Assembly (NCBI GenBank): GCA_963799845.1
Contig: CAWCYI010000004.1
Span: 896,001-960,000, forward strand
Direction of reading: 5' to 3'
Length of the DNA stretch: 64,000 nt
From: an uncultured Nitrososphaerota archaeon
GTDB taxonomy: Archaea > Thermoproteota > Nitrososphaeria > Nitrososphaerales > CADDZS01
In this document: positions 930 through 40,102 of the stretch, one piece after another
Numbering within the stretch: the first letter of the stretch is position 1
Layout of the letters: every line of letters begins with the position of its first letter
The notes under the pieces: model-generated
Databases searched by the model: none
Seen by the model: the letters and a program-made list of their open reading frames with translations, nothing else
Told to the model about the DNA's origin: nothing
Made by a program: the position numbers and the translations under genes

Positions 930-1907
930 TTACAAAGTACCTCTTAGCTTTTTCCCAACTCTTCGCCAATTTACGCCTGTAAGTCCTCGTGGAGCCACAA
1001 GCAGAACTATGATCATAATGGCGAGAGGAATTCCTTTTTGAAAGTCGAGAACCTGAGAGCCTGCAGACGCACCGTAAAGAGCGCTAAAGAGCCTGTCTAA
1101 CAATACTGCGATATACGTTTCGCTGAAGCCTACAATTAGTCCACCGATTATTGCTCCGTAAATACTTCCTAGGCCCCCCAGCACGCTTCCTGCAAAAATG
1201 TCCACTATGATTAAAGACGATTGACCCTCCGGTGTTCCCGTAAATATTGCGGTCAGTCCTCCCGCAACCCCGGCTATCCCTCCTGCCAGAAACCATGAAA
1301 CTAGGTTAACCCGCTCTACATTGATTCCCACTGTTTTGGCGAGATTTGCATTTTCGATAGCTGCTCTCATCGCTACACCAAACTTTGATCGGGTAAGCAA
1401 GAGAAACAGACCAAATGAAACGAGCAACAGGACGGCTGGAGCTATGAATAGCAACCCAGGATATCCAAAGATACGAATATCCGGTAGCTGTTGAAGGCTG
1501 TAGAATTGACCCCCGTATCCTTTGTCATCCAGAATTCTCCCGTATTTGCTTCCCATGTACTCTGCGAACAAATCGAAAAGTCCCGAAAAAACAATGTCAA
1601 CAGCAAGAGTTGCGATCATAAGCACAACCAGTGAAGAACCACGACGAATCAATGGCCGCAAAACTATGAGGTACATCACGACGGCAACTGCTGCCCCGAA
1701 GATCAACCCCAACGGTGTAGTCAGATAGGGACTTGGCGCATCCCAAAGAATGTAGGAAGCCGATGATGCATAAATCCCCACGACGACGAAATCAGCCACA
1801 GCAAAATTTGGAACTTTGGTAGTGAGATATGTAGCTGTCAGTCCGACGCACATCAATCCCACGAGCGATCCGTAGATGATTGATTCTGTGATTGTCGGGT
1901 CGAGCAT
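930..1907 (-). CDS. livH: Branched-chain amino acid ABC transporter permease (LivH-like)
   Basis: GLTATYLTTKVPNFA, RSKFGVAMRAAIEN..A..VGIN and GGLGSIYGAIIGG motifs; start taken at MLDPT. Confidence 0.9.
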   Translation of the reverse strand: MLDPTITESIIYGSLVGLMCVGLTATYLTTKVPNFAVADFVVVGIYASSASYILWDAPSPYLTTPLGLIFGAAVAVVMYLIVLRPLIRRGSSLVVLMIATLAVDIVFSGLFDLFAEYMGSKYGRILDDKGYGGQFYSLQQLPDIRIFGYPGLLFIAPAVLLLVSFGLFLLLTRSKFGVAMRAAIENANLAKTVGINVERVNLVSWFLAGGIAGVAGGLTAIFTGTPEGQSSLIIVDIFAGSVLGGLGSIYGAIIGGLIVGFSETYIAVLLDRLFSALYGASAGSQVLDFQKGIPLAIMIIVLLVAPRGLTGVNWRRVGKKLRGTL

Positions 1908-1969
1908 CCAGTTCTTCTCATGGCGAAGGTAAGAATAGTTAAATAGTTTCTCATAGCTGACCCTCAAAT

Positions 1970-3379
1970 ATGGTTAGAATAAATCGAAGACGTACGGGCG
2001 TCTCCACAGTGGTTGCTGCCGTCCTTTTAATTGTAGGATTGGTGGTGGGCGCGGGTGTAGGGCTTGCTGCGTCATCTAGCAAAGTTACGACGTCAACACA
2101 AACGACAACAATTACTGGATCTGGTAGCGCACCAGCAACGACAACAGTGACATCTCCCGGGACAACGGTCACGGTCAGTGGTTCAGGTTCGAGCAGTAGC
2201 GGCCTTTCAGGGATTGTTACAATCGGAGTCCTCGATGACCTGACGGATGGATTGTCAGGTGAAGGGCTTAAGATAAACTTCACAGTGCATCAGGCAGTGA
2301 ATGACATTAACGCATATTTGCAAAATACTAGTTGGGCGGGCAAAGTAAGCTTCAACGTAGCAGTAGAAGACTATGCGTTGGACAACACAAAGGCAACGAA
2401 CATCATGAACACTTTCAAGTCAGATGGAATTGCGGTTACTGTCGGACCCCTAAACAGCGGATCGGCACAAGCGATACTCAGTTTGGCTGATTCGGATCAA
2501 ATTGTCATGATCAGTCCATCGTCAACATCTGCGGCTCTCGCAATCCCGAACGATTATCTTTTCAGGACTGCGCCAACGGACAATGTACAGGGCATGGCAG
2601 ACGCGGCAATGATGTGGCAGAATGGAGTGAGGTACCTGATACAAGTTTACCGACAGGATACCTATGGTAGCGGCCTCGCCAATTTCACTGCAGCGGATTT
2701 CAAAGCCCTTGGCGGAACTATAGTGGATAGCGTACCTTACGATACAACCACAACAAACTTCGCGCCAACTCTAGCGACTCTGAATACCGACTGGGCGACT
2801 GGAGTAAGTGATGCAAAAGGCAACAACAATTCAGTAGCTATTCAGATGGTAGCCTTCGATGAAGGTGCGACGTTGCTACAGCAAGCAAGCACGAGTTATC
2901 CCACTCTACTAAAGACTCCACAGCCATGGTATGGAACCGACGGAGTAGAAGGAGAGTCAGTTTTCACAAACTCGACTATTGCCTCCACAATACAAGCTGT
3001 GAGGCTCCCCTCAACGGTATTCGGCTACACCAACAGCAGCAAAACACAGGTACTATGTACACAACTATTCAAGGCAACTAGTCAGACTTGTGATTCCTAT
3101 CCGATAGGAGCATACGATGATGTTTGGATCGCGGCTCTCTCAATACTGGAATGTGGCTCCAACACTGGCTCCTGCATTCAAAAAGTACTGCCGAGCGTTG
3201 CTGACAACTACTACGGAGTTAGCGGATGGACGGAGCTGAACGCAGCAGGTGACAGAGCTATCTCTGACTACCTGATCTACTGCATCACTGGCCCCGCAAG
3301 CAATCTCGCTTGGACCGTCTGCGGATCGTGGTCGTACCAGACAGACACGGTAACTTGGACGAACAAACCTTCAACGTAA
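1970..3379 (+). CDS. ABC transporter substrate-binding protein (LivK-like) with N-terminal anchor and Ser/Thr linker
   Basis: N-terminal TM segment, T/S-rich linker, VGPLNSG, ISPSSTS..L, YLFRTAPTD, DTYGSG motifs. Confidence 0.9.
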   Translation: MVRINRRRTGVSTVVAAVLLIVGLVVGAGVGLAASSSKVTTSTQTTTITGSGSAPATTTVTSPGTTVTVSGSGSSSSGLSGIVTIGVLDDLTDGLSGEGLKINFTVHQAVNDINAYLQNTSWAGKVSFNVAVEDYALDNTKATNIMNTFKSDGIAVTVGPLNSGSAQAILSLADSDQIVMISPSSTSAALAIPNDYLFRTAPTDNVQGMADAAMMWQNGVRYLIQVYRQDTYGSGLANFTAADFKALGGTIVDSVPYDTTTTNFAPTLATLNTDWATGVSDAKGNNNSVAIQMVAFDEGATLLQQASTSYPTLLKTPQPWYGTDGVEGESVFTNSTIASTIQAVRLPSTVFGYTNSSKTQVLCTQLFKATSQTCDSYPIGAYDDVWIAALSILECGSNTGSCIQKVLPSVADNYYGVSGWTELNAAGDRAISDYLIYCITGPASNLAWTVCGSWSYQTDTVTWTNKPST

Positions 3380-3380
3380 A

Positions 3381-3421
3381 AGGAGTTTAGGGAAACTCCT
3401 CCCCCTTCTCTTTTTTTGTTT
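3381..3421 (+). terminator. Hairpin plus T-tract after the substrate-binding gene
   Basis: AGGAGTTT-aggg-AAACTCCT stem followed by a pyrimidine/T run immediately after the stop codon. Confidence 0.55.
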
Positions 3422-3453
3422 AATTACCTGTTTTCTTCCGTGTTTTGAGAAAC

Positions 3454-4212
3454 ATGGGTCTTGCCTTAGAGGTTAAGGACGTACGTAAGTCCTTTGGAAA
3501 CCTGCACGCTCTCGACGACGTTTCACTAGGTGCTGAAGAGAAATCACTTACGATTCTAATGGGCCCCAATGGCTCGGGAAAGACGACCCTGATCAACGTG
3601 ATAGGTGGATTGTACAAGCCCGATTCTGGAACTGTATTCTTTCGCGGAAAGGAAATTACTGGTCTTCCACCTCACAAGATATTCAAACTTGGGCTTGCTC
3701 GTACATTTCAAATTCCTGCACTATTTCCTAACCTCACTGTTCTTGAGAACGTGATGGTTGCTAAGAAGGATAACCCGGGCGAAAGTTTCGCCAGATCCCT
3801 TTCGAAAAGATTTTGGGCGAAAGAGGAAACAAAAACTGCGGAAGAGGGTTTCGAAGTCCTAGCCATGGTCGGCTTGTCGCATATGTGGGACAAGCTCGCG
3901 GCAGTTTTAAGCGGAGGGCAATTGAAGCTCTTGGAAATAGGGAGAGCTTTGATTAGCGATGCAAGCGTGATCCTTCTCGATGAACCAATCTCCGGAGTAA
4001 ACCCAACGCTTGCTCATCAAATCTTTTCAACATTAGTGAAAATTAGAGATAATTACGGAGTCACATTTCTGATAGTCGAACACAGGCTCGACATAGCCCT
4101 AAGTTATGTTGATTCAGTTATCGTAATGGCGTACGGAAAATTCTTGACCTCGGGAACGCCGCAGGAAGTGACCTCGGACATCAGGGTTATTGACGCCTAT
4201 CTGGGCGGTTGA
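3454..4212 (+). CDS. livG: ABC ATPase (LivG-like)
   Basis: Walker A GPNGSGKT, LARTFQ, LSGGQ, LLDEP, IVEH, C-terminal DAYLG. Confidence 0.92.
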   Translation: MGLALEVKDVRKSFGNLHALDDVSLGAEEKSLTILMGPNGSGKTTLINVIGGLYKPDSGTVFFRGKEITGLPPHKIFKLGLARTFQIPALFPNLTVLENVMVAKKDNPGESFARSLSKRFWAKEETKTAEEGFEVLAMVGLSHMWDKLAAVLSGGQLKLLEIGRALISDASVILLDEPISGVNPTLAHQIFSTLVKIRDNYGVTFLIVEHRLDIALSYVDSVIVMAYGKFLTSGTPQEVTSDIRVIDAYLGG

Positions 4213-4232
4213 ACGAAGGTTTTCAATAAAAC

Positions 4233-4973
4233 TTGCTTTCAGTCGAAACAGTTTCTGCCGGTTATGGCAGACTCCAGGTTCTCTACGATATCTCGATGCA
4301 GGCTGCCGAAAAGGAAATCACTGTAATAGTTGGACCGAATGGGTCGGGGAAAAGCACTCTCCTGAAAACAATAGCTGGGCTTACATCAATCTACAGTGGC
4401 AGTGTTTCTCTCGATGGAAACAAGATTTCCGGTCTGCCTGCGCATGAGATCGCAAAGCGAGGATTGGCCTATCTTCCTCAGACTGAAAGTGTGTTTACTC
4501 AGCTGACTGTTGCAGAGAATTTCAAGATGGCCGGTTATACTGTTCCAGACGCAGAATTTGATTCACGGCTGAAAACTGGAATGGACATGTTCCCGCAGTT
4601 ATCGAATTATCTAAAGTCCAAAGCTCAGAATCTGAGCGGCGGCGAAAGGCAGATGGTAGCGATGACGATGGCGTTGATACGCAAGCCTAAGGTAATCATG
4701 TTTGATGAGCCCACGGCCAACCTATCGCCTAAACTTGCGACCGAAGTCCTCAGAAAAATAGCGGATCTACCCTCAGCCCTCGGGCTTACAGTACTCCTAG
4801 TGGAACAGAATGCGAAGAAAGCTCTTGAGATCGGCAATAAGGCGTACCTGCTTGTCAGCGGGAAAAAGGTCTTTGACGGCTCTGCAAGGGAGCTGCTCGA
4901 ACACGAAGAGCTTTCCCGCATGTACCTCGGCCTAAAAACAACTGGAGCAAATCAATCCCGGTCTTCAAAGTAA
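4233..4973 (+). CDS. livF: ABC ATPase (LivF-like)
   Basis: GPNGSGKS, LSGGERQM, DEPTANLSP, LLVEQNA, YLG. Confidence 0.92.
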   Translation: MLSVETVSAGYGRLQVLYDISMQAAEKEITVIVGPNGSGKSTLLKTIAGLTSIYSGSVSLDGNKISGLPAHEIAKRGLAYLPQTESVFTQLTVAENFKMAGYTVPDAEFDSRLKTGMDMFPQLSNYLKSKAQNLSGGERQMVAMTMALIRKPKVIMFDEPTANLSPKLATEVLRKIADLPSALGLTVLLVEQNAKKALEIGNKAYLLVSGKKVFDGSARELLEHEELSRMYLGLKTTGANQSRSSK

Positions 4974-4989
4974 ATCAAGCTTTTCCAAG

Positions 4990-6015
4990 CTAAGAAAAAT
5001 CTACACTTGTTCCCACGTTGTTTTTGACAGCATTTCGATAGGCTAGCGAAGCTGCCGCGCAATCCTGAATGCCCAACCCAACCGATTTGAACAACGTAAT
5101 TTCTTCAGGGGATTTTCTGCCCTGCACTGATCCGAGAATTACCTCTCCGAGATTGCCGAGGATTCTATCTTTTGAAAAGGCGCCTTCCTTAATCGGAATT
5201 AGCAGGTCTCCGGCTTCCTCCAGCGCCGCCTCTTGCAAATCCACGTAAACTTTGGAACGGACAACTGTTTGAGTGTCGATCTCCCTTTCCAACGGTTTGT
5301 AGTTCCCGAAGGCGCTAAGATGAGTCCCAAGCTTAATTTCGCTTCCATCAAATAGAGGATCTTTCGAAGGCGTGACGGTGGTAATGATGTCGGAGAGCTT
5401 TACCACAGAACTTGGAGTGTCGGCGACCTCGACGGATATTTTCAACACATCACTCATTTCATCCGCATAATTCTTGGCTCGCGCCCTAACATTGTCGTAG
5501 ACAACCGCTCGGTCAATTGATCTAACTTCCACGAGCGCCCTGAGCTGCGTCCGCGCTTGAACGCCAGCCCCAAAAATACCTGCAACGTGCGAATCGGTTC
5601 GTGATAGATACTTTGCAGCAAGCCCCCCCAACCCTCCCGTTCTCATAGCTGTAATCGATGCGCCGTCCATGATCGAAAGCACCTGACCGGTCTTCGGATC
5701 GTTTAGCACGATTGTACCTATTATCGCGGGAAGGCCTCTTTCCAGATTTCCGTTGTAGAGTGTGACTATTTTTGTCGTAAAAGAATTCAAACTCGGAAGA
5801 TAAGCTGGCATGATTCCTATCCAGCCTCCTTCCCGCGCGAGAGTTACCGTTGACCTAGCAATGGGCATCGTCTTGCCTGAAGCTTGGTCTTTGAACGCCG
5901 TCTCAAGCTCGGAAATCATTTCAGACATGGTCAAAACTTGATCCAGATTGGATTTAGAAAGAATCAAGACCAAAGAATTGCTCGCTCGGCAAGTTTCGAC
6001 TGTGGTCTTTTTCAA
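4990..6015 (-). CDS. Ornithine cyclodeaminase / archaeal alanine dehydrogenase (mu-crystallin) family; true start probably slightly downstream
   Basis: MPAY, KIVT, ITAMRTG, GAGVQARTQ, EEAGDL, TLFKSVGLGIQD. Confidence 0.9.
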   Translation of the reverse strand: MKKTTVETCRASNSLVLILSKSNLDQVLTMSEMISELETAFKDQASGKTMPIARSTVTLAREGGWIGIMPAYLPSLNSFTTKIVTLYNGNLERGLPAIIGTIVLNDPKTGQVLSIMDGASITAMRTGGLGGLAAKYLSRTDSHVAGIFGAGVQARTQLRALVEVRSIDRAVVYDNVRARAKNYADEMSDVLKISVEVADTPSSVVKLSDIITTVTPSKDPLFDGSEIKLGTHLSAFGNYKPLEREIDTQTVVRSKVYVDLQEAALEEAGDLLIPIKEGAFSKDRILGNLGEVILGSVQGRKSPEEITLFKSVGLGIQDCAAASLAYRNAVKNNVGTSVDFS

Positions 6016-6098
6016 GCATTCTAAGTGATTTCAGTCTCTCCCAATTTTGGGACATTCCTTACAATGAATTCGAAACGATTGTCTTAATTCCTTACAAA

Positions 6099-7104
6099 TT
6101 ACTGATCAAGATGTTCACGGATTAACGGTTCCAGAAGATTCAATCTCGCGGCAGATGCGTTTCCGTCCTTTACTGTATCTACTGAGAAAATGGGTATGAC
6201 CGTTGGTGGCAAAGTGAGAATTTTTTCTTGAATTTTTTCAATGTCTCCGACAAGTGACAAATCGTCGATGAGATCGTTGTCTACTGAATCAGCAGCGGCT
6301 CTGCTTCCGCCTTCGGCATGCGCTTTCTGAATCTTCTTTACGCTATCTTCGAACCCCAGTTTCGAGAGATTCGTGGCATAATAGCGACCCATGGAGCCCA
6401 CGTAGAAGGCAATATTTTTTGCAATTTCAATTCTTGCTTTCCTTGTTTCCTCGGAGTTCAGAGTAATTTTCAGCGGGATGTATGCGAAAAGTTTCTTCTC
6501 TTTTCCGCTCGAATCTGATCGTCTCACTATATCCAGCGCGTGCGAAATTTTCGAAAGCGGATACATAGTAACTATCGCGCCGTCCGAGATGCGGGCAGCA
6601 ACTGACAAGTTTCGATCGCCAATTGCTCCGATGTATATTTCCTGGTCGGTGCTTCGAGGCTTTGTGTAAAGTCTGAATCCGGATAGTCTCAGAACTTCTC
6701 CCGAGTATTCCAAATCATCGCCGCGAGCGACGCGCCTAATGATTTCGACGTATTCCTTGGTTCTCTGCAATGGTTTCGTAAAACTAGACCCGTGCCAGTT
6801 CTCGACCACAGTTTTCCCGCTTGATCCTAATCCCAAAAGAAATCTATCTGGAGCAATCTGGTCGAGTGTGGCACATGCCATACCGATTAGCGCGGCGGAT
6901 CTAGAATAGATATTAACCACTCCTACGCCAATCTTAACTCTCTCAGTAATGCCGAGCAAGTAGCCGGCGGTCGATATAGACTTCTAGGCCCCAGGCTTCT
7001 GTCAGCCAGAGATACTCGAATCCGTAATTGTCGGCTTCACGAGCAATCGACCTGGTGAAATCTATGGTCGCTCCTCGCCAATTGATGCAAGCGCCGAACT
7101 TCAT
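6099..7104 (-). CDS. LLM-class (probably F420-dependent) oxidoreductase; +1 indel near 6981
   Basis: N-terminus MKFGACINW...GFEYLWLTEAWG in one frame joins GITERVKIGVGVVNIYSR...RFLLGLGSS in another. Confidence 0.8.
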
Positions 7105-29395: not shown

Positions 29396-30397
29396 TCAGA
29401 TAAATCTTCTTTCGGCCAGAGAATAAGCAGCAAACTTCGGAGTTTTGTAATCAGGGAAAAGTTCCGGATGGAGAATAGATGCCATAATCTCAAGGCCGTC
29501 AACGAGACGCGGACCTGATCTGCTGTAGTACGACGGACTGTCCATGACGAAAACTTTGGAATTTCGCACAGCTCGTAGGCTGCCCCAGCCTTCCTTTCCC
29601 GTAAGAGTAGAAATCTCTGAGAGAGTACGTTGGACATCGTAACCACAAACGGTCACGAAAATAACCTCAGGATCAATCTTCAACACTTTCTCCCACTCCA
29701 CGACGGTCGACGGCTCTCCGAATTTCCCAAGACCTTCTCTGCCCCCAGAGTAATCCACCAGCTCGGGCATCCAGTGCCCCGAGCAATAAACCGGATCGAG
29801 CCACTCAAGACAAAATACTGAAGGCCTTTGGACAGAACTATCCATGCATTTTTCCTTGACCTTGTCGACTCTACTTTCGAGCTTTGATAAAATTTCCTTC
29901 GCGCGCTCTAAACTCCCGGTGGCTCTGCCTACTTTCACCACGTCCTGCAGCACCTCTTCGAGGTTATGTGGTGTCAAAGAAAGTATTCCTGGTTTTGGAT
30001 TCAGGTTTGCTATCGTTTTCGAGACTTCGCGGAGCGGAGTGGCGCAGACTTCGCACAGTTCTTGCGTGATTATTAGGTCGGGAGCAAGCGATCTAAGGAG
30101 CTCTTCATCGATAGTGTAGACGGACTTGCCCTGAGTTACGCGTTCCAGGACCGAGTCGTCAATTTCTCTGCTCGTCATTTGAGTCGAATCAAACACCGAT
30201 CGCATCACCACTGGTTTTAACCTGATTTCGGGCGGATAATCGCATTCGTGGGTTATTCCAACCAGTTTATCCTCCAGCCCAAGCAGGGCCACGATCTCGG
30301 TGGCGCTGGGAAGAGTCGTAATTATTCTCCTAGCCGAAGCTCCGGTGTCTTCCGCTGGAGAACGGTGATCCAGATGTGAAGGAGGATAGAGACTCAT
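29396..30397 (-). CDS. BtuF-like cobalamin/siderophore substrate-binding protein
   Basis: LPSATEIV, THECDYP, PDLIITQELCEVCA, LEW.DP, GHW.PE, SRSGPRL. Confidence 0.85.
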   Translation of the reverse strand: MSLYPPSHLDHRSPAEDTGASARRIITTLPSATEIVALLGLEDKLVGITHECDYPPEIRLKPVVMRSVFDSTQMTSREIDDSVLERVTQGKSVYTIDEELLRSLAPDLIITQELCEVCATPLREVSKTIANLNPKPGILSLTPHNLEEVLQDVVKVGRATGSLERAKEILSKLESRVDKVKEKCMDSSVQRPSVFCLEWLDPVYCSGHWMPELVDYSGGREGLGKFGEPSTVVEWEKVLKIDPEVIFVTVCGYDVQRTLSEISTLTGKEGWGSLRAVRNSKVFVMDSPSYYSRSGPRLVDGLEIMASILHPELFPDYKTPKFAAYSLAERRFI

Positions 30398-30465
30398 TTC
30401 GTGAGAATGAATCTGGGATTCTTTTTCTTAAATATTGGGCTCGCATTCACGGGAGGTACCGACAA

Positions 30466-31269
30466 ATGTCCGAGCCTCTCAAATTCTACGATAATACGTA
30501 TGGTAATTTTTCTGAATCGATCCTGCAGGAAGTTCGAAACGAAGCGTTCGGCATGGACATCGGCCAAAATAGCTGGCTTACGTACGACGAACATCTAAAA
30601 TTCATCCTACATCTCAGGGCAAACCCACAATCTAGAATACTCGAGGTCGCTTGCGGATCTGGCCGTCCGGCACTAAGGATCGCGGAAGTTTCGGGCGCAC
30701 GGGTAGTTGGAATTGACATTAACGAAAAGGGAATAAACACAGCAAAGGAGATGGCTCGGGGGATGAAACTGGATTCTCTCGTCCAGTTTCAGGTTGCGGA
30801 TGGAAGCAAGTCACTGCCCTTCGATGACCAGTCCTTTGATTCGCTGATATGCGTGGATTCAATCAATCATCTTCCAGATAGACCGGGCGTACTCCGTGAA
30901 TGGCACAGAGTTTTGAAGCAGGGTGGGAGATTACTTTTCACAGATCCTATAACTGTCACGGGAATTCTGAGTAATGTCGAAATCGCGATCCGAAGTTCAA
31001 TCGGTTTCTTCCTTTTTACTCCTCCGGGCGTCGACGAGATTATGCTGAAAGAGTCCGGCTTCGAGTTGTTGGATAAGGAAGACCTGACCTCAAGCATGGA
31101 GATCGTTGCAAAACGGTGGCACGATGCTAGATCCAAGCGAAGAGAAGCTCTGATCAAAATAGAAGGAGAAGCTGAATACGAAGGCCTTCAAAAATTTCTG
31201 GAAGTTACACATACTTTGTCCCGGGAGAGGAGACTTTCCAGATTTGCCTACTTGGGAAGGCGACCATGA
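30466..31269 (+). CDS. Class I SAM-dependent methyltransferase
   Basis: LEVACGSG, GIDIN, LPFDDQSFD, RVLKQGG. Confidence 0.9.
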   Translation: MSEPLKFYDNTYGNFSESILQEVRNEAFGMDIGQNSWLTYDEHLKFILHLRANPQSRILEVACGSGRPALRIAEVSGARVVGIDINEKGINTAKEMARGMKLDSLVQFQVADGSKSLPFDDQSFDSLICVDSINHLPDRPGVLREWHRVLKQGGRLLFTDPITVTGILSNVEIAIRSSIGFFLFTPPGVDEIMLKESGFELLDKEDLTSSMEIVAKRWHDARSKRREALIKIEGEAEYEGLQKFLEVTHTLSRERRLSRFAYLGRRP

Positions 31270-31336
31270 TTCCCCAAGGCGCCAAATTTGGATTGGTTGT
31301 GATTCGATCCTATTTAGTCTCAAAAAGATATCTCGG

Positions 31337-31405
31337 AGGAGCCCTCTGTTCGAATCTCGGCTCAGATTCGAGAGGAATATGGAAATAACCCTGCTCTTCG
31401 CTCTA
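31337..31405 (+). repeat. Family-B-related element; first ~30 bp repeated at 44761
   Basis: AGGAGCCCTCTGTTCGAATCTCGGCTCAG vs AGGAGCCCCTCTGTTGGAATCTCGGCTCAG; local stem TCGAATCT/AGATTCGA. Confidence 0.7.
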
Positions 31406-31484
31406 CCCTCTTACCGTGAATCGCATATGATCATCTCAGATCTTCTGGTAGATCAATATTACCAGAAGGTCATTTCCAGGTGCG

Positions 31485-31518
31485 GGGGTCCCACATTCCG
31501 TACATGTTTACTAGTAAA
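31485..31518 (+). repeat. Family A repeat, degenerate copy 1
   Basis: GGGGT-CCCACATTCCG..CATG then TTTACTAGTAAA (31507-31518). Confidence 0.65.
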
Positions 31519-31657
31519 TCTCTTCGGGGTTGAAGGATCACTGCCGAACTAACAACCCTTCAAAAGAACTAAAGGAGTAAGACGAACATAGGCGGCTAAC
31601 AAAGAAGAGAGTGAGAATTCTTATTATCTGGGATTTGCTGCGGGATAATAGAAGTTT

Positions 31658-32464
31658 ATGAGCATAGCTAGAGAAGACGATAAGAATCCATTCGATCTAA
31701 GTGGCAAGAACGCTGTTGTGACAGGAGGAGCCATGGGTATCGGTTTTGGGATTTGCAAACGATTTGTTCAAGCCGGGGCCAACGTGCTTATTGCGGATGT
31801 CGCGGGAAGCGCGGTGGAGGCAGCCGCGCAGAAACTAGCAGGTTCCCGCGGTAAAGCGGTTGCGATCCAAGCCGATGTTGCCGCGGATGGTGTCGGCGAT
31901 AGACTAGTCAGCAAATGCATGGAACTTTTTGGTTCGATCAATATTTTGGTCAATAACGCCGGCATTTATCCCATATCTCCCATTCTTCAAATGACCCCGG
32001 ATTTCTTTGATAAAGTCTACAAAATCAACCTGAAGGGACTGGTTTTCCTATCCAAAGCCGCGGGAGCGAAAATGGTCGAAAGAGGTAAAGGAGGTAAAAT
32101 CATAAACATTTCTTCCATCGACGCGTTCCACCCCACATCTGTGGGCCTCGGAGCTTATGACACTTCCAAGGGAGGAGTGACGATGTTCACCAAAGCCCTC
32201 GCTCTGGAGCTTGCACCCCACGGGATTATGGTGAATTCAATTGCCCCCGGAGGTATAGCGACGGAAGGCACTTCGAAACCTCTCACAGGAATGACCGAAG
32301 AACAAACGAATCAGATGATGAAAGCGTTTCTTGCGAGGATTCCTTTGAGCCGAATGGGAGTTCCAGATGACATTGGGAAGGTGGCCCTTTTCCTGGCTTC
32401 TTCTGCGTCCGATTACATAACAGGCCAGACGCTTATTGTTGATGGCGGCATGCTCCTCAGCTAG
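31658..32464 (+). CDS. Short-chain dehydrogenase/reductase
   Basis: TGGAMGIG, NNAG, YDTSK, VNSIAPG. Confidence 0.93.
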   Translation: MSIAREDDKNPFDLSGKNAVVTGGAMGIGFGICKRFVQAGANVLIADVAGSAVEAAAQKLAGSRGKAVAIQADVAADGVGDRLVSKCMELFGSINILVNNAGIYPISPILQMTPDFFDKVYKINLKGLVFLSKAAGAKMVERGKGGKIINISSIDAFHPTSVGLGAYDTSKGGVTMFTKALALELAPHGIMVNSIAPGGIATEGTSKPLTGMTEEQTNQMMKAFLARIPLSRMGVPDDIGKVALFLASSASDYITGQTLIVDGGMLLS

Positions 32465-32494
32465 TTGCGAGAGAAGTACAGCTCACCTCATGGA

Positions 32495-32566
32495 TTTACA
32501 AGTAAATTGGGGTTCAAATCCCACATTCCGCTCATGAGAATATCACAAGGTGAAATCTAGTAGTTT
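32495..32566 (+). repeat. Family A repeat, copy 2
   Basis: TTTACAAGTAAA-TTGGGGTTCAAATCCCACATTCCGCTCATG; right end degenerate. Confidence 0.8.
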
Positions 32567-32730
32567 CCTACGAATACAAGCCACCCATTCTGGCAAATTC
32601 TCGTATTTACTATCAACAGCCTACAGTGGTACCTGCTCTTGGGTTCGAGTCCAGATAGACGCGCTTACATGTCGAACAACCGCCCATCTTGGATAGCGTG
32701 CAACTGCGACAGGAGGTTTCTGTCCGGAGT

Positions 32731-33933
32731 CTACTTTTTGACTTGGACACCTTGTCGCCACACAGCTCGGATGGACAGCGTGTCTGAGATGTTCGTCGTT
32801 GGGTCCCCATCGACCAGCAGCAGGTCGGCGCGAGCCTGAGGAATGACCCGCCCCCTGTCGGTGAGACCGAACCTGCGCGCAGGGATGGATGTGGCTGCCT
32901 GTAGTGCTTCGATCGGGCTCAATCCAGCCGCGACTAGGAGTTGCAGTTCCTGGTGCAAGCTGGCACCGTGGCCGAGTCCACCTAAACTGGGGATAGGCTC
33001 CGAAGCATCACAACCTGCCAGAATGTCTACACCCGCCTCGTGGAGGGCTATGACCCCAGCATACGCATCTTCGAGCTTTCCTTGGGGGTATACATTCATG
33101 CTGCGGGAGAGCGCGTCGAGCCACTTCTGGTTCAGCTTGGAACTTACTCGTTTGTCGGCGGCGAGCGCAGATGCATTATTGCCAACGGCAGAGGAGATCG
33201 TCACAAGAGTGGGGATAACAAACGCGCCGGAGGATGCAATGGAATCCACAAATTCGGCAGTAGGTCGACTATCAAAGAACAAGTGTGCCAGACCATCTAC
33301 TCCAGCTGCAATAGCTCTTTGGCCCCCTTCGGCGGTCGTTACGTGCGCGATGGCCAGCCTACCATTACGATGAGCTTCCTTTACGGCTGCACCGAGGATT
33401 TCATCATCAAGCACAGGAAGCCCCGGGAAACCGATACAGGTTCCGTCCTCAATGAAGATTTTGATGTAGTCGGCTCCGTCAGCGATCTGCTTGTCTACGA
33501 ATTTGACTGCTTCGTCAGGGGTCGAGACACAAGGATAACGATAGAATAGGCGAATGAGTAAGTTGTTGCTCGAACTCATGTATTCAGTCGGGTGACCTCC
33601 TGGAGGAGTGAGGCCCATCCCAGAGGATCGCAAATCCGCGACATCACTCCGTTCAGCGATTTCCTTACGCTTCTTCGTTGTCCAATGACCGTTCATCTCC
33701 AACTCTGTGGTGACACCAAACAACAAGGCGTCACGCAATCCGTGCATGTCGGTATGCACATGGGAGTCAATCAAGCCGGGCATCAGGGTTGCGCTGTGAC
33801 CATCGATGACAGTTGCCCCAGATGGTACCTCCCCACCCACCGACTGTATATTTCCCCCGTTTATCACTACAGTCGCGTCGTCGATGATACGAACACCGTC
33901 GAAGATCCTCGCGTTGATAATGGCTGTAATCAT
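32731..33933 (-). CDS. Metal-dependent amidohydrolase
   Basis: PGLIDSHVH, GADYIK, AH, LAH, AGCD, ATS.PA..FG, ADLLLVDGDP. Confidence 0.92.
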   Translation of the reverse strand: MITAIINARIFDGVRIIDDATVVINGGNIQSVGGEVPSGATVIDGHSATLMPGLIDSHVHTDMHGLRDALLFGVTTELEMNGHWTTKKRKEIAERSDVADLRSSGMGLTPPGGHPTEYMSSSNNLLIRLFYRYPCVSTPDEAVKFVDKQIADGADYIKIFIEDGTCIGFPGLPVLDDEILGAAVKEAHRNGRLAIAHVTTAEGGQRAIAAGVDGLAHLFFDSRPTAEFVDSIASSGAFVIPTLVTISSAVGNNASALAADKRVSSKLNQKWLDALSRSMNVYPQGKLEDAYAGVIALHEAGVDILAGCDASEPIPSLGGLGHGASLHQELQLLVAAGLSPIEALQAATSIPARRFGLTDRGRVIPQARADLLLVDGDPTTNISDTLSIRAVWRQGVQVKK

Positions 33934-34430
33934 GCTAGCAATAGATCTATTTCTATTCTACATAGGTAAGGCTATCTTCAATGGGAAGAGATTCTGACAA
34001 AGTGGAAGTAAACTGAGACACAAATTCCTAAAGTGAGAGACTAGGGATGGAGGTGAAAGAAAGTGTCGAAAAAGTTTGAAATCGGAGAAGGGAAAAGCGC
34101 TTCTCCACTGTCAACTGCGATATGATTACAAATCGTATCAAGATCGAGCAAGACTGAGGGATTGTTGCAAACGAATTGCACTATTCGCCACGCGCAAAAA
34201 ATTCCAGTTCGATATCGGAAGTTAACCACATCGCGTCGACGCCGTTACTGGCAAGGTAATCTACAGTAGTCCAGGACCTATCGCCATGAGTCTGCTCGGT
34301 TTCAGACTTGATGACATCGTATTCGAATCAATCTGTGCCAGGTGGAATTAATGGATCTACAACTTCAATTCTCGGAAAATTAAACCCACAAGAATAGGTC
34401 GTTGGATTCTAATATTATTCTTTATACTAT

Positions 34431-34504
34431 TTTACTAGTAAATTGCGGTTCAAATCCCACATCTCGCGCATGGAATTATTTTGTGCTCAGAATTTACTAG
34501 TAAA
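34431..34504 (+). repeat. Family A repeat, copy 3 (complete)
   Basis: TTTACTAGTAAA-TTGCGGTTCAAATCCCACATCTCGC...-TTTACTAGTAAA. Confidence 0.88.
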
Positions 34505-34638
34505 GAATAAACCAATTTTCATGTTCATGGTTGGCCCGAGTTTGTCTATTGTCAATTCTACCGTTGTCAATTTGCTTGTCTTGATTTTAGGACAAAGATT
34601 CATAATAAGCGAGCCACACCCTTGCGCAAGGCCTGAGC

Positions 34639-35100
34639 ATGAAACCTGCAGAGAAGTCCCCGAAGTCCGCCAAAAGCACTACCGCGACCAGCAAGAAGTC
34701 CAAAGGATTCACGGACGAGGAACGAGCCGCGATGAAGGAGCACATCCAAGAGCAGAAAGCGGGCAAGGCGGACGGGGAAAGCGCTGTGCTTGCGAAGATC
34801 GCCACGATGTCTGAACCGGATCGCGCCATGGCCAAGCGTCTCCATGAAATCATTATGAAGAGCGCGCCAGCCCTCTCGCCGAGGACCTGGTACGGGATGC
34901 CTGCCTATGCTAGGGACGGCAACGTCGTCTGCTTCTTCCAGCCAGCGCAGAAGTTCAAGACAAGGTACGCGACATTAGGTTTCAGCGACGAGGCGAATCT
35001 CGATGAGGGCGATATGTGGTCGACCGCCTTCGCTCTGATGGGATTGAATGCCGCCGAAGAGGCAAGGATCGGCGCGCTGATAAAAAAAGCGGTGACCTGA
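34639..35100 (+). CDS. DUF1801 (YdhG-like) protein
   Basis: [38 protein letters not shown]. Confidence 0.85.
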
Positions 35101-35102
35101 AT

Positions 35103-35528
35103 ATGAAAGCAAGTGCAACTTCTTCCCCGAACGGTAAGTCTACCTCTCAACAGATAGATGCAATAATTAAGAAGTCGGATGACTGGCGAGGCAAGAGATT
35201 ATCACAACTTCGCATTTTGATCAGGAAAGCCGACACTGACATAATCGAAGAAGTGAAGTGGAGAAAACCCAGCAACCCGATGGGAGTCCCGGTCTGGTCT
35301 CATGACGGAATAGTCTGCATAGGAGATACGCTCAAGAACGCCGTGAGACTGACATTCCCAAAAGGCGCTCAGATTAAGGATACAAAGAAGCTCTTCAACA
35401 TGCGCCTAGACAGCAATACAGTTCGTGCAATTGACTTCCACGAAGGTGACGCTGTAGACGAAGCTGGGTTAAGAGCACTCATTCTCGAAGCTGTGAAGCA
35501 GAACACATCGAAAGTGCGCGAGCGATAA
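35103..35528 (+). CDS. DUF1801 protein
   Basis: DWRG..L..LR.LI, EEVKW, PVW...G, LTF.KGA, RAID. Confidence 0.85.
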   Translation: MKASATSSPNGKSTSQQIDAIIKKSDDWRGKRLSQLRILIRKADTDIIEEVKWRKPSNPMGVPVWSHDGIVCIGDTLKNAVRLTFPKGAQIKDTKKLFNMRLDSNTVRAIDFHEGDAVDEAGLRALILEAVKQNTSKVRER

Positions 35529-35592
35529 ATAGCTCTGCGCGTGACTGGGCCAGCGAATCGTCCATTATCGCCAATTCAATTCCTGGGAACAA

Positions 35593-37570
35593 TCAGTAGA
35601 CTCCAATCTTTTTCATTATTTCTGCAAATTTCTCGTTAGTTTGTTTGAGCCTGTCAAAAACAGGGAAATGTCCGAAGAGGATCATGCTCAGCTTCCCTAT
35701 CTCTATACGCTTTTTCAAAGAATTCGACGGCTCTTTCATCTTCTTGGAGACCCAAGTATACCAGGCCAATATCAAATGCACCCGACCTCCCGATTCTATC
35801 TCCCTTTGTAATTTCGTCGATAATTTCTGCCGCTTCCTTTTTTCTCTGAGAGACAGCTAAGACGTATCCGAGATAACTCAAACAGTATGAGAGTCGATCG
35901 GTGAGCTCAACTGCCTTGTTGGTCTCCCTTAGTGCGTCATCAAACTTTCCCTTCTCTACGAAAATTAGTCCCTTGAAAAGTCTCGGATAGATTCCTCGGG
36001 GATCCAGATCGAGCGACTCGTTGAATAAATTTAGGGCATTATAGTACCTTCTAGTATTGTAGAGCGTCTTCCCAATGTGCCATTTCAGGAACGCCCAGAG
36101 CGGGTCCAGCTCAAGCGCCCGACTGTTTTCCCGCTCTGCCTCCGCAGCTCTGTTGGACAATCCAAAAGTGTCCCCCAGCCATAAATGCGGAGTAGAATAG
36201 CTTGAATTAAGTTCAATGGCCCGCTTGAATTCTCTTTCAGCTGTAGGAATATCATAATCTGATTGTAGGGAAACTATTCCCAGTGAGCAGTGCGCCTCTG
36301 CGAGCTCCGGGTCTGCATCAATGGCGAGTTTTGCATAGTGTTTTGCTTTCGCGAAACCTTCCTTTTCGGTTATTTCCTCCCCCGCCATGTACGTGTAACA
36401 TTCGGAAATTCCGGATAAGGCCAGACCGTAATTAGGTTCCAATACGAGAGCCTTCTCGAAGCATTCAATAGCTCTGAAGAAACGCTCTCCCATCTCCATA
36501 GTCCGCATGAAGTATCTTCCCTTGAGGAACAAATTGTACGCCTCCGCATTCCTGGATGATTCTTTCTCGATTCTTGCTCTGGCACTCGGAAAAAATGTCG
36601 ATTGTAAAGTCGAACTAACTGTTTCTGCGATCTCTGTTTGAATTGCAAAAACCTTCTCCAATTTCCTATCGAACTTTTTTGACCATACGTGCCTGTCCTC
36701 AGCTGTATCGATGAGCTGCACGGTAATGCGCAGATCGTCTCCTGCCTTCCGGACACTTCCTTCGAGGATCAATCCGGCGTCGAGTTCTTTCGAAATCTCT
36801 TTTACCTGGACGACTGCATTATTCTTGTAACGCATTATAGAAGTGCGGGAAATTACGTCGAGACCTTGAACTTCGGACAGAGTCGTGATGAGTTCTTCCG
36901 TCAATCCATCTGCAAGGTATTCATCTCGTGGATCTGGGCTTATGTTTGAAAAAGGCAGTACTGCAATTCGGCGATCATTCGAATTTTCGCGAGTCTTTTC
37001 CCTTACGACGCCTGCTTCCCAAGGCATTTCGACCGAGTACAATTCCGTGGGAAATTCAACGTTCTTCAGTGACTGCTTTCCGAGCAGTCTCAGAGGCTGG
37101 TCTATTTTGTTGTGCACCTGGTCGAACACCTGCCGGGAAATTGCGACTCTTTCGGGAGGTGATAGCTGCTGAATTCTTGATGCAATGTTCACTGCATCGC
37201 CGAAAACGTCATTGTCTTGATGTATGACATCGCCCAGATGAATGCCAATCCGAAGTGTGGTCTTCCACTCCTCTCTTGAGGAGAAGTTGTAGTCGTGAAG
37301 AAATTCTTGGATCTTAATCGCGCACTTGACGGCATTCAGGGCGCTATCAAATTCCACGAGAAAGGAGTCTCCAATTGTTTTCACCTCACGTCCTCGATTT
37401 TTCGGAAAAAATGGACGGAGAAGATGAAAGTGCCTTTGAAGAACCGCCATCGCCAGTGACTCATTGGCTTGAGTAAGAGCAGTATAGCCGACCATGTCCG
37501 TGAACATTATCGCCGCGAGGCGGCGCTCATCCAACGACAAAAAGTTCAGACTACTCCGGTTAGTGGACAT
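35593..37570 (-). CDS. Class III adenylate/guanylate cyclase - TolB-like - TPR protein; +1 indel near 35707
   Basis: AAIMFTDMVGYT, KTIGD, RIGIHLGD, GDAVNIASR, IAVLPF.N, EGSVRK, TPR repeats; C-terminus resumes in ORF 35593-35781. Confidence 0.88.
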
Positions 37571-37579
37571 TTGTATTAT

Positions 37580-37636
37580 TTTACTAGCAAATTCGTGCTC
37601 AAATCCCATATCTCACATTCGGGATTTACTAGTAAA
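37580..37636 (+). repeat. Family A repeat, copy 4
   Basis: TTTACTAGCAAA-TTCGTGCTCAAATCCCATAT...CGGGA-TTTACTAGTAAA. Confidence 0.85.
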
Positions 37637-37684
37637 ACTAGATCTTATCTTAAAGTACTTTGCAAGAGCTCTCCCTAGCATAGT

Positions 37685-38362
37685 CTAGCGGAGTGAGAAG
37701 CCTTGCAGACCGGAATTTTTTCTGGTAACTATCTTTGATCTTCGTCTTCTTCTAGTCCACCAGCTAATTGGAATTGGACAATTATCGGCTAAGGCTATGC
37801 TCCCCTGTCTGAGCTTTTGGTCGACAATCGCAAAGTCTGATTTTGCCTCTTCGATTTCGTATGGAACGTCGTACAGAAAGAGGTCGACGCTTTCAACTTC
37901 CTTTATCAAATCTGGAAGAATTTCACTACTCTTTCCTAGTCTCAGATCCCAGTTTTTCTTCAACGATTGAGGAACCGCCCAACCGGATTTTTTTCCCGGG
38001 GGCAAAACCCAAGATACTTTTGGTCGAGGAATGTTTTCAATTTCTTTCTCGGGGAGATCTATTGAATGGAGCACGCCTTTTCCATTTGATTCCAAGGCGT
38101 GCAAGAAATATGCTGACGAAACACCGGCCGAAACACCGACCTCGACGACATGTTTCGGTCTCGTGATTGTCACAAGTGTGCGCAGCTCAAACGGCGCACA
38201 AATCTGAATGTAACTAGAGCGCCCACCCTCTGCCAAGTTGCGCTCCATCAAATGGCGAAAAACGATGTCTTGACTTATCAATTCGTTTTGCATCTTTGAC
38301 ATCCCAAGGCTGACTCTAGCTGAGCTTTGACACGAAGAGTGCATCGGGAGCGCCCCGTTCAA
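37685..38362 (-). CDS. Class I SAM-dependent methyltransferase (Methyltransf_24-like); N-terminus uncertain
   Basis: VVEVGVSAGVSS, LHSIDLP, SGWAVP, LRLGKS, DLFLYD. Confidence 0.75.
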   Translation of the reverse strand: MNGALPMHSSCQSSARVSLGMSKMQNELISQDIVFRHLMERNLAEGGRSSYIQICAPFELRTLVTITRPKHVVEVGVSAGVSSAYFLHALESNGKGVLHSIDLPEKEIENIPRPKVSWVLPPGKKSGWAVPQSLKKNWDLRLGKSSEILPDLIKEVESVDLFLYDVPYEIEEAKSDFAIVDQKLRQGSIALADNCPIPISWWTRRRRRSKIVTRKNSGLQGFSLR

Positions 38363-38582
38363 TTTTTGGTCTGGTTTCTTTTTAACGAGTCTGACGTGCT
38401 AGGATGCGATGATTGCACCGTCTTTCATAATAAGAATTTGAAGTCTCCTATTTGAAAATTCAATTGTTGTACGAAGGGTAGTTTTTCCCTTCTAAAGAGC
38501 ATCAGAAGTCTTAATCTCTGAGTTTCTCGACCTTCGATTTTAATTCGGAAAGATTCAAAGGTTTCGAATTCAACGATCATTT

Positions 38583-38670
38583 TTTACTAGTAAATTGTGG
38601 TTCAAATCCCACATCCCGCTGTTGGATTATCCTTCCTTGGGATTTTACTAGTAATTACGTGTCCGAATCC
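38583..38670 (+). repeat. Family A repeat, copy 5 (with a partial tandem unit)
   Basis: TTTACTAGTAAA-TTGTGGTTCAAATCCCACATCCCGC...TGGGAT-TTTACTAGTAAT-TACGTGTCCGAATCCC. Confidence 0.88.
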
Positions 38671-38882
38671 CGTTTCTGATTCGAATTCGGAATGTTCTCC
38701 AACGGGACTCGCACCTGTATTCGGATAAAATTCTTGCAGGCAGAAGACCGTGAGCTCCCGATTACGGAGCTAGATTGAGAGGATACAGCTACTGTCCTTA
38801 AAAAGACCCCAATGGGGTCGTAAGCCAGTGAATTATCATAACCACAAAACAATCTATCATAAAGAAAAAATCGATAGGTTAC

Positions 38883-39863
38883 ATGGTCGTCCCGGATCTA
38901 AGGGACACTCATACGCTGCTGAATCACGCAGCACTTGCTGCGAAGGCTGGATTCTCTGTGATTTGGGTTCCAGACCACTTTCATCCCTGGTTTCACACAG
39001 GAGCCTTCGAAGCTAATTCCTGGATTTGGCTTTCGACCGCCATGGATAGAATCAAAACGGTCCCGTTCGCTTCGGGGGTGACCGTCCCAATTCTAAGATA
39101 TCATCCCGGAATCGTGGCACAGGCGTTTGCAACTCTCGAAGTAATGCACGGCCCAAGAATCATTCTCGGAGTGGGGAGCGGTGAGGCACTGAACGAGATA
39201 CCACTGGGATTTGAATATCCTCCACTACCTGAAAGAATCGACAGAATGGTCGAAGCGATTACGGTCATGCGAAAGTTGGGCACAGAAGAGTTCGTGGATT
39301 TCAAAGGAAAGTACTACACGCTGAAAAAAGCAAATCTGTACATGAAGTCCACAGTACCGATATACATCTCCGCGCTCGGCCCGAAGACAGCGAAGATCGC
39401 AGGAAAAATTGGCGACGGTTTCATTACCTTCCCATCGCCGATGGACCGACTGAAGAATGTGATCTTTCCAAAAATCAGAGAGGGCGCGCAATCGGTGGGC
39501 AGGTCTTTTGACGATATCACAAAAGTATTAGAGCTGGACGTGTCTCTCGATCTAGATTATCAGAAAGCACTGGATGCCCTGAGGCCTCAGAAGCCAACTC
39601 TCGTCCCGAACATCTTCAACACTAACGAGTACGATCCGAGGAAATTAGAAGAGCGTGGAAATGCCGAAGTAAGTGACGAGGATCTCGCAAAAGCGTTCAT
39701 TGTCGGATCTTCGGTCGATGATCATATCACGAGAATTGAAGAGGCGTTTGATGCAGGCTTCGACCACGTATTTGTGTCCAGCAACAGTCCGGACGAAGAG
39801 AGATTCATCGACGAATACAAGAAAAAAGTGATACCATACTTCGAAAAAAGATCTGAGGAGTAA
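38883..39863 (+). CDS. F420-dependent LLM oxidoreductase (G6PDH/Adf-like)
   Basis: DHFHPW, GVT.P..RYHP..VAQAFATL, GVGSGEALNE. Confidence 0.9.
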   Translation: MVVPDLRDTHTLLNHAALAAKAGFSVIWVPDHFHPWFHTGAFEANSWIWLSTAMDRIKTVPFASGVTVPILRYHPGIVAQAFATLEVMHGPRIILGVGSGEALNEIPLGFEYPPLPERIDRMVEAITVMRKLGTEEFVDFKGKYYTLKKANLYMKSTVPIYISALGPKTAKIAGKIGDGFITFPSPMDRLKNVIFPKIREGAQSVGRSFDDITKVLELDVSLDLDYQKALDALRPQKPTLVPNIFNTNEYDPRKLEERGNAEVSDEDLAKAFIVGSSVDDHITRIEEAFDAGFDHVFVSSNSPDEERFIDEYKKKVIPYFEKRSEE

Positions 39864-40102
39864 AAACGTCGCCGCCGTTCATCATTTCGCGGAGGGAAAT
39901 CGCAGGGTAGCGAAAGAAAATAATTCTGGGTGAGAACAAGAAACCTGCAACGATAAAAGTGAGACTTATCGGCCAGGAGACGAACTTAATATTCTCTGGT
40001 AGCGCCTTACGCTAGAACGCGATGCAGCAGGTACCTCACAGGTCTTTCTTTCCCGCCTTGCAATTTCGTTATCGAAGAAGAAGATACATAACTTCCCCTT
40101 TT

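Follow-up and report, generated by a model that had tools for sequence, protein, structure and literature searches.

Five related repeats between positions 31,485 and 38,680 of a 64,000-nt stretch of an uncultured Nitrososphaerota archaeon are probably attachment (att) junctions left by integrative elements that encode a tyrosine integrase and target the 3' ends of transfer RNA (tRNA) genes. This stretch, called the window below, is G000:C4:896001-960000, where G000 is the source genome (assembly of 4.6 Mb, 86.7% complete). We read the repeats as att junction sites because the palindromic box that marks them is tied, elsewhere, to the end of a tRNA gene, to an open reading frame (ORF) named ORF174 and to an integrase gene. 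The anatomy of the sites, the tRNA origin of their core, the linkage of the box to tRNA end, ORF174 and integrase, and the arrays of other genomes that have a tRNA at their start were all observed directly.

A complete site consists of a 12-bp box (TTTACTAGTAAA), an arm of 7-9 nt, a core of ~20-25 bp and a second box. With at most one mismatch, the palindrome has eight matches in the window, all within 31.4-38.7 kb, which start at 31507, 32495, 34431, 34493, 37580, 37625, 38583 and 38644. Shuffled windows gave an expectation of 0.11 matches, and none of 100 shuffles reached eight. A reading of this DNA from its letters alone (the sequence-only reading) had described five related, co-oriented, intergenic elements with palindromes 45-62 bp apart. 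The nhmmer matches, which have one orientation throughout, and the ORF positions bore this out, and the box-to-box spacing is 62 bp in copy 3, 45 bp in copy 4 and 61 bp in copy 5. The inner complement AAATCCC/GGGATTT that it noticed in copies 4 and 5 is present in both. The consensus that it gave for all five holds for copies 3 to 5; copies 1 and 2 each lack one box. The sites are as follows.

31485..31518, + strand: copy 1, half site at the leftmost junction of the array; core remnant (GTGCGGGGGTCCCACATTCCG...) and right box at 31507-31518, without left box; partial nhmmer match, model positions 27-59.
32495..32538, + strand: copy 2; left box TTTACAAGTAAA (one mismatch), arm and tRNA-like core, without right box.
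34431..34504, + strand: copy 3, complete long form; boxes at 34431-34442 and 34493-34504; nhmmer E 3.5e-12.
37580..37636, + strand: copy 4, complete short form; boxes at 37580-37591 (one mismatch) and 37625-37636; nhmmer E 2.5e-16.
38583..38655, + strand: copy 5, complete long form; boxes at 38583-38594 and 38644-38655 (one mismatch).
38644..38680, + strand: unit-B half site, the rightmost junction of the array; box and ACGTGTCCGAATCCCGTTTCTGA (a second core type), without a box behind it.

The core of the site is a copy of the 3' end of a class-II tRNA. The cores of copies 2, 3 and 5 are identical at 18/20, 18/20 and 19/20 positions, respectively, to the genome's own tRNA-Leu(CAG) (C7:91427-91597), in the part from the T-loop to the discriminator; no box stands behind that tRNA gene. 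Copy 4 agrees at 15/20 positions with the class-II tRNAs of the same genome, and copy 1 had no good match among the source genome's own tRNAs. Sites in other genomes have the same sequence as the 3' end of the tRNA upstream of them, in some loci together with its trailer. When the site was scored against the nearest tRNA in 11 loci where this tRNA was upstream and co-oriented, the scores were 15-29 in seven (L162, L105, L108, L056, L096, L097 and L062) and 6-12 in the remaining four (L063, L102, L120 and L129); four loci with a nearest tRNA that was not upstream and co-oriented scored 6-13. Most tRNAs predicted in the source genome carry introns, several of them at non-canonical positions. A few ARAGORN calls have 'introns' of 1-1.7 kb (e.g. 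C4:1366359-1367633 and C4:1935194-1936727) and may be artefacts or disrupted genes. Explanations of the repeats as split tRNAs or tRNA introns were dropped, the box, as we read it, being unlike an anticodon arm and att copying explaining the tRNA likeness.

A whole element is present in L164, in the order tRNA-Ser, box-like ATTTACTGGTA, ORF174, integrase, ~4 kb with insertion sequence (IS) genes, and right end. Its integrase has a PF00589 match (1.7e-28) and a SAM-like N domain, and the right end consists of TTTACTAGTAAAT, an arm and the last 21 nt of the tRNA. Joining the two ends gives box-arm-core-box, and thus the same architecture as that of the window sites. The order tRNA-box-ORF174-integrase was also found in L169, which is from the same family as the source genome and has the exact box, and in L168, which is from the same genus. 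Between L168 and L164, identity is 63.5% for the integrase and 74% for ORF174, and a record titled Thermoplasmatales encodes an integrase with 52-55% identity to these integrases. The two module proteins have ~174 (ORF174) and ~325 (tyrosine integrase) amino acids. Reverse-oriented T-arm-like stretches such as GAGATTCGAACTC were seen at the right ends of elements in L105, L108, L114, L119, L132 and other loci with Bathyarchaeia titles, 20-60 nt upstream of the box.

An array that begins at an intact tRNA gene was found in L162, a record titled Bathyarchaeota. Bracketed by the core genes for rpl3 and the thermosome, the locus has the order rpl3, tRNA-Ser(CGA), NikR/ZnuA/ABC-3 genes, site, PAS gene, site, prismane and helix-turn-helix (HTH) genes, site; integrase pseudogene fragments follow the last site, and then the thermosome genes. 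The last 30 nt of the tRNA are repeated behind the box at each of the three downstream sites, and the repeat family takes in the tRNA end itself. The NikR/ZnuA/ABC segment stands beside the tRNA here; in L090 it is behind a site that comes after other genes. Two further loci were noted for their cargo. In L089 (record titled Bathyarchaeia), at 486-6783, two co-oriented sites lie around a cbb3-type cytochrome oxidase operon (FixO, COX1, FixP-like and cytochrome c assembly genes) that looks like acquired cargo for aerobic respiration. L160 (G043:C1:1272000-1291999) has three co-oriented sites and one inverted degenerate copy, with genes for an ArsP permease, TnpB, a 984-aa PAS histidine kinase and an SBF symporter; two of its sites have 233 nt in common at 97% identity.

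An independent test of the linkage started from ORF174. Searching metagenome contigs with ORF174 alone gave 80 loci, and a box with at most two mismatches ended 24-61 nt (mode 38) before ORF174 in 74 of the 77 loci with at least 60 nt upstream. The background was six boxes in 186,902 nt. In the rows inspected among these 74 loci, a tRNA 3' end lay directly before the box. An integrase gene lay directly behind ORF174, on the same strand, in 70 of the 72 loci with room for it. ORF174 matched no Pfam family, and a profile search of PDB sequences returned nothing below E 0.2. Its predicted fold (mean predicted local distance difference test score, pLDDT, of 66) has two short helices, a long helix and a winged-helix-like end, and the best Foldseek matches of the model in PDB were winged-helix regulators, at weak E values of 0.035-0.2. 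ORF174 is a putative DNA-binding-like protein, whose N terminus may be a candidate ribbon-helix-helix.

The family is widespread among archaea. A covariance model of 18 copies had matches in eight of 12 other genomes of the source family and, weakly, in one of 28 genomes outside it. A pattern of the box and spaced core letters matched 105 stretches in genome contigs. Going by the record titles of the 80 that were listed, nearly all of these are archaeal and belong to many phyla. Bathyarchaeia are commonest, and the others include Thermoplasmatales/-ota, Nitrososphaerales/Thaumarchaeota, ANME-1/Methanophagales, Methanohalarchaeum, Hadesarchaea, Micrarchaeota and a Hermodarchaeum. Three listed matches are actinobacterial records with common flanks, probably a coding coincidence, and one further title is bacterial. 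Among the matches listed, the second box is exact only in records titled Nitrososphaerales or Thaumarchaeota, and behind the core it is degenerate in the other groups. Small co-oriented clusters of sites also occur in G043, G045 and G042. The box-core pattern had no match in IMG/VR. Clustering of 482 ORFs from the neighbourhoods of 77 pattern loci gave no common recombinase and no family in more than six loci, and the nearest downstream ORF was a PF00589 protein in just three of 73.

From these loci we propose the following course of events. An intact element has the order tRNA gene, box, ~38 nt, ORF174, integrase, cargo, and a box with arm and tRNA 3' copy. Its circle would carry box-arm-core-box, and the integrase would bring about recombination of the circle's core with either a tRNA 3' end of identical sequence or a site that is already there. 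Integration would restore the tRNA, followed by the left box and the ORF174-integrase operon of the element, and the far end would become a box, an arm and the displaced tRNA 3' copy. A complete site would then comprise the right end of one element (box and arm), the common core and the left box of the next element. The crossover would fall inside the common core, in which tRNA identity starts in the T-loop, and the boxes would bind the ORF174 protein and/or the integrase. Because of its fixed distance of 38 nt from ORF174, the left-end box is perhaps also the operator of the ORF174-integrase operon. Reuse of a site would stack elements in one orientation, loss of the integrase module would leave co-oriented arrays of cargo, and the segments of the window would have come by such integrations.

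The source genome is rich in sites. The exact 12-mer occurs 40 times genome-wide, compared with ~0.3 occurrences expected by arithmetic, and the nhmmer profile (E<0.01) found 50 non-overlapping sites, or 49 after subtraction of one duplicated contig end, which group into 21 clusters with a site spacing of 0.1-8.6 kb. The sequence-only reading had seen no copy outside 31.4-38.7 kb, which is correct for the window and does not hold for the genome. A scatter of copies over the genome in random orientation, which that reading had named as a refutation of its view, is half borne out: copies are indeed found genome-wide, but they are clustered and co-oriented (26 of the 28 neighbouring pairs at most 10 kb apart; overall 28 sites are on the plus and 21 on the minus strand). 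Of the 50 sites, 43 lie between ORFs and seven inside short ORFs of 64-117 aa from a crude ORF caller, and the flanking genes are convergent at 19, divergent at seven and tandem at 24. The consensus of the short form is TTTTTACTAGTAAATT, a variable arm, CCCACATCTCGCACTCGGGA and then TTTACTAGTAAAA, and the boxes are the most conserved columns of the alignment.

The units can be chained. Unit B, with the second core type, stands before or after the main unit in several copies, and eight such doublets lie at other places in the source genome. Sites also mark the limits of paralogous blocks: one of 384 bp (99% identity) terminates in a unit-B core, one of 691 bp (92%) begins at a unit-B box, and one of 437 bp (88%) terminates at a right box. 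The gene families that recur at the arrays (ABC ATPase, cyclase-tetratricopeptide repeat (TPR), short-chain dehydrogenase (SDR) and RibD_C) are large paralogous families. Two places with repeated sequence around sites were also noted. On G000:C4 the sites at 1952503, 1957822 and 1963141 follow each other in steps of 5319 and 5319 bp, with a switch of orientation at the first, and may reflect a duplicated or inverted segment. In addition, G000:C7:11735-12291 and C8:4328-4884, each a 557-bp stretch with a site in it, match at 100% in opposite orientations, which may be assembly redundancy or a recent duplication.

Within the window the sites are spaced by 1.0-3.1 kb. The accessory modules that the sequence-only reading had placed between them (SDR, amidohydrolase, two DUF1801 genes with cyclase-TPR, methyltransferase and luciferase-like monooxygenase) were confirmed by Pfam, and its view of the repeats as recombination sites that bound accessory segments, co-oriented within arrays, is supported. 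The genes are listed below.

30376..31269, + strand: left flank gene, methyltransferase (Pfam).
31658..32464, + strand: cargo segment 1, SDR (Pfam adh_short_C2, 7e-59).
32731..33933, - strand: cargo segment 2, amidohydrolase (Pfam Amidohydro_1, 2.5e-22; GC 0.549).
34639..37570, mixed strands: cargo segment 3, two DUF1801 genes (+) and a cyclase-TPR gene (-).
34639-35100 and 35103-35528, + strand: DUF1801 gene pair (Pfam; GC 0.576 in the first gene).
35654-37570, - strand: adenylate/guanylate cyclase-TPR gene (Pfam).
37685..38362, - strand: cargo segment 4, methyltransferase (Pfam Methyltransf_24, 3e-14).
38883..39863, + strand: right flank gene, luciferase-like monooxygenase (Pfam).

The GC content of the window is 0.475, and that of the amidohydrolase and first DUF1801 genes is higher (0.55-0.58). 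The DUF1801 stretch (34492-35259) reached a summed contig depth of up to 82 in a peat metagenome, compared with less than 6 elsewhere. The DUF1801 genes have DNA matches of 77-90% in other genera, with no boxes nearby, and the gene itself seems to be widely shared.

Homology to G003, a genome of the same genus, breaks off at 31271 and starts again at 38716, so that the array lies between the two breaks; the G003:C291 match covers the monooxygenase gene at 96% over 38716-39982. On G003:C291 (L051), at 1336-1500, a different cyclase paralogue precedes the monooxygenase gene, with no site and no methyltransferase, and the region 31272-38715 is therefore variable between the two genomes. Comparison of the C7 array with five same-genus genomes gave just scattered matches of 63-90%, too diverged or fragmented for synteny. 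Joints that could come from excision or integration were sought in the contigs of four public runs (X1-X4); five public runs were listed for this sequence, with no RNA run among them. The joints 31500>37616, 34466>38581, 32531>37621 (+CTAT), 38597>37610 and 38677>34431 were found, and every one of them is explained by other copies of the repeat, e.g. the copy at C4:1374963; they speak neither for nor against excision.

Several results weigh against an origin of the window sites from integrated elements or are not predicted by its simple form. ARAGORN, run with and without introns, and the Rfam tRNA model detected no tRNA in the window or beside any of the 21 clusters. A PF00589 search of the source genome gave four weak matches, none of them at an array, and the cognate integrase and ORF174 were not found in this 86.7% complete assembly: tblastn with four integrases and three ORF174s returned at best a generic match of 22% (E 0.001). 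With no integrase, ORF174 or anchoring tRNA found, the defining cis parts are missing in the source genome, and its sites are orphans in all three respects. Integrase remnants adjoin none of the 49 sites, though the boxes are the best kept part, and the decay of whole elements does not obviously predict boxes so well kept and so free of remnants. In L134, L165, L166 and L162 the integrase lies behind the site on the opposite strand, unlike in L164, L168 and L169, where it is co-directional. The homologues of the DUF1801 genes in G007, G011 and G020 (77-90% identity) have no box in their 1.5-kb flanks, the breaks of homology to G003 fall ~200 bp (left) and ~35-60 bp (right) off the nearest half sites, and no excision or integration event was seen in the public runs, of which contigs were searched.

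Some of these results would fit an integron-like system, in which segments without integrase are still mobile in trans through ORF174 and an integrase encoded elsewhere and selection keeps the sites. We regard this as possible though rather unlikely. The absence of remnants of integrase or ORF174 beside any of the 49 sites would fit it, as would the conservation of the boxes and the survival of 40 exact 12-mers. The short segments (0.1-8.6 kb spacing; 1.0-3.1 kb in the window), the one-sided homology blocks that terminate at sites, the integrase-less segments between sites in other phyla (L162, L160, and L089 with the cbb3 oxidase operon), and the different positions of the NikR/ZnuA/ABC segment in L162 and L090 also speak for it. 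However, neither a circle nor an empty-site junction was seen in the contigs, the trans-acting integrase was not found in the source assembly, genes inside the segments face both ways, and homologous recombination between the 57-bp repeats together with deletion of the integrase module could yield the same picture. The sequence-only reading had suggested an undescribed cassette system with a recombinase encoded elsewhere. Indeed none is encoded beside the sites in the source genome, according to the PF00589 and tblastn searches, but the core is a tRNA 3' copy and relatives and other phyla have a tyrosine integrase in cis, and so an undescribed system is not required. In its boldest form, about which we are still a little more doubtful, the idea would make the family an archaeal, tRNA-seeded analogue of the integron: cargo would be captured, stacked and reshuffled in trans by the cross-phylum pair of integrase and ORF174, a putative box-binding protein, and the source genome would have escaped the tRNA anchor and seeded ~20 arrays that helped to expand it.

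Explanations outside site-specific recombination fare much worse. A miniature inverted-repeat transposable element (MITE) or repetitive extragenic palindromic (REP) sequence, spread by transposition and with the boxes as terminal inverted repeats, would be short (~57 bp), multi-copy and intergenic and would have identical palindromic ends, as the sites do, and the source genome has two IS200/IS605-type Y1 transposase genes. This alternative, which the sequence-only reading had held open, is nevertheless very improbable: target-site duplications are missing, 15 of the 16 full-length short copies having no anchored flanking direct repeat of at least 2 nt; the copies occur in co-oriented clusters; the core copies a tRNA 3' end; and in 74 of the 77 independent loci a tRNA end and integrase go with the box. 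Nor are the ends of the 2.8-kb IS200/605-like element related to the box. Both Y1_Tnp genes lie in this 2.8-kb repeat, and the idea that the sites are IS200/IS605 ends or belong to a REP-associated tyrosine transposase (RAYT) was rejected. The two copies of the repeat (C4:749685-752504 and C6:728085-730901) are 93% identical and encode a 141-aa Y1 transposase.

It is just as hard to see the sites as a gene for a small RNA, structured or tRNA-like, or as a signal for RNA processing. Many single sites fold as a hairpin, the core resembles a T-arm with acceptor end, and 30 diverse sites have in common a 5-bp consensus stem after the box, between the arm and the end of the core, in which four of the five pairs show one double change or more. 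But this covariation is weak (alifold -1.3 kcal/mol), each pair is broken by 2-7 of the 30 sequences, and the sample was picked by a pattern that fixes some columns. Rfam 15 had no match at E up to 10 at the window sites (30000-40000), ARAGORN called no tRNA there, and copying of the target tRNA end explains the tRNA likeness. A binding site of a host protein, such as an operator or an origin recognition box (ORB)-like sequence with no relation to mobile DNA, would suit a perfect 12-bp palindrome that is paired at 45-62 bp, and an operator role is plausible at the loci elsewhere that have ORF174, with the box a constant ~38 nt ahead of it. As the whole explanation we give it hardly any credence: 19 of the 50 sites lie between convergent genes and seven between divergent ones, the single cdc6 gene has ORBs of the TCCAGTGGAAA type beside it, and the tie to tRNA ends and integrases would be left unexplained. 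The idea of a replication origin or ORB was rejected on the same ground, as three TCCAGTGGAA-type repeats and not the box stand before the single Cdc6_C match. These three canonical ORB repeats (G000:C4:1318100-1318300) lie in an 850-bp gap upstream of that match (C4:1319359-1319631), and the place is likely a replication origin.

For archaea, two papers (PMC6563490, PMC8371274) describe integration at tRNA genes, arrays that build up in tandem at a single att site, and loss of the integrase; they include thaumarchaeal 'cryptic integrated elements' and integrases that stay intact on integration. Like the elements described there, the box family has direct repeats that are tRNA 3' copies, an integrase beside the tRNA-side junction, operational genes as cargo, arrays that arise when a site is used again, and loss of the integrase after integration. 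Unlike them, it has a conserved palindromic box on both sides of the core, a conserved ORF174 partner that belongs to no Pfam family, a module that is 63-74% identical between a same-genus genome and a Bathyarchaeota-titled record, and a source genome with ~49 sites, no integrase and no anchoring tRNA. The box string and the ORF174-integrase module were not found in the literature searched, with supplements, possibly holding att lists, outside the search. We class the box sites as a new family within a known kind, marked by palindromic boxes, ORF174 and spread across phyla.

The tycheposons of Prochlorococcus (10.1101/2020.12.28.424599) resemble the box family in being cargo elements with a tyrosine recombinase at one end that integrate at tRNA genes, in forming islands by repeated integration with partial tRNA copies, and in carrying nutrient-uptake cargo, to which the NikR/ZnuA/ABC and cbb3 oxidase genes of the box family in other archaea correspond. 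They are bacterial, however, and have their own integrase lineage and replication modules; replication modules were not seen in the box family. The likeness is in the working mode, and we claim no membership.

Archaeal integrons use attC sites and IntI (PMC9668308). The box family shares with the integrons of that account the co-oriented arrays, short gene segments, foldable recombination sites and a tyrosine-family recombinase, as well as arrays without integrase, similar to clusters of attC sites lacking integron-integrases (CALIN). In contrast to integrons, the box sites combine palindromic boxes with a copied tRNA 3' end in place of the attC layout, and their arrays start at a tRNA gene and not at attI beside intI, with genes that face both ways. 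The box-family integrase has the SAM-like N domain typical of Xer/phage integrases, and no integron integrase was found, there being no PF00589 match near any array of the source genome. In a comparison by eye, the attC core differs from the site ends TTTACTAGTAAA. The arrangement of gene modules between short recombination sites, with the recombinase encoded elsewhere, is also that of pdif/Xer-dif arrays. pdif sites are 11-6-11 Xer sites of alternating orientation, whereas the sites here share one orientation and have a box-core-box layout that includes a tRNA copy. These comparisons, made by eye for attC, support the earlier remark that the elements match neither attC nor pdif.

The 12-bp box, the tRNA 3' copy and the ORF174-integrase pair provide a sequence handle for horizontally acquired cargo in poorly known archaea. 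The titles of the records with this handle include Bathyarchaeia, Nitrososphaerales, Thermoplasmatales, ANME-1 and Methanohalarchaeum, and one family of integrative elements is common to several archaeal phyla at high identity. If it is true that segments without integrase move in trans, integrons would not be the only route to cassette arrays, and the second route would be seeded by tRNAs. The source genome is an extreme case, with ~49 orphan sites in 4.6 Mb, and it bears on how the large genomes of soil archaea grow.

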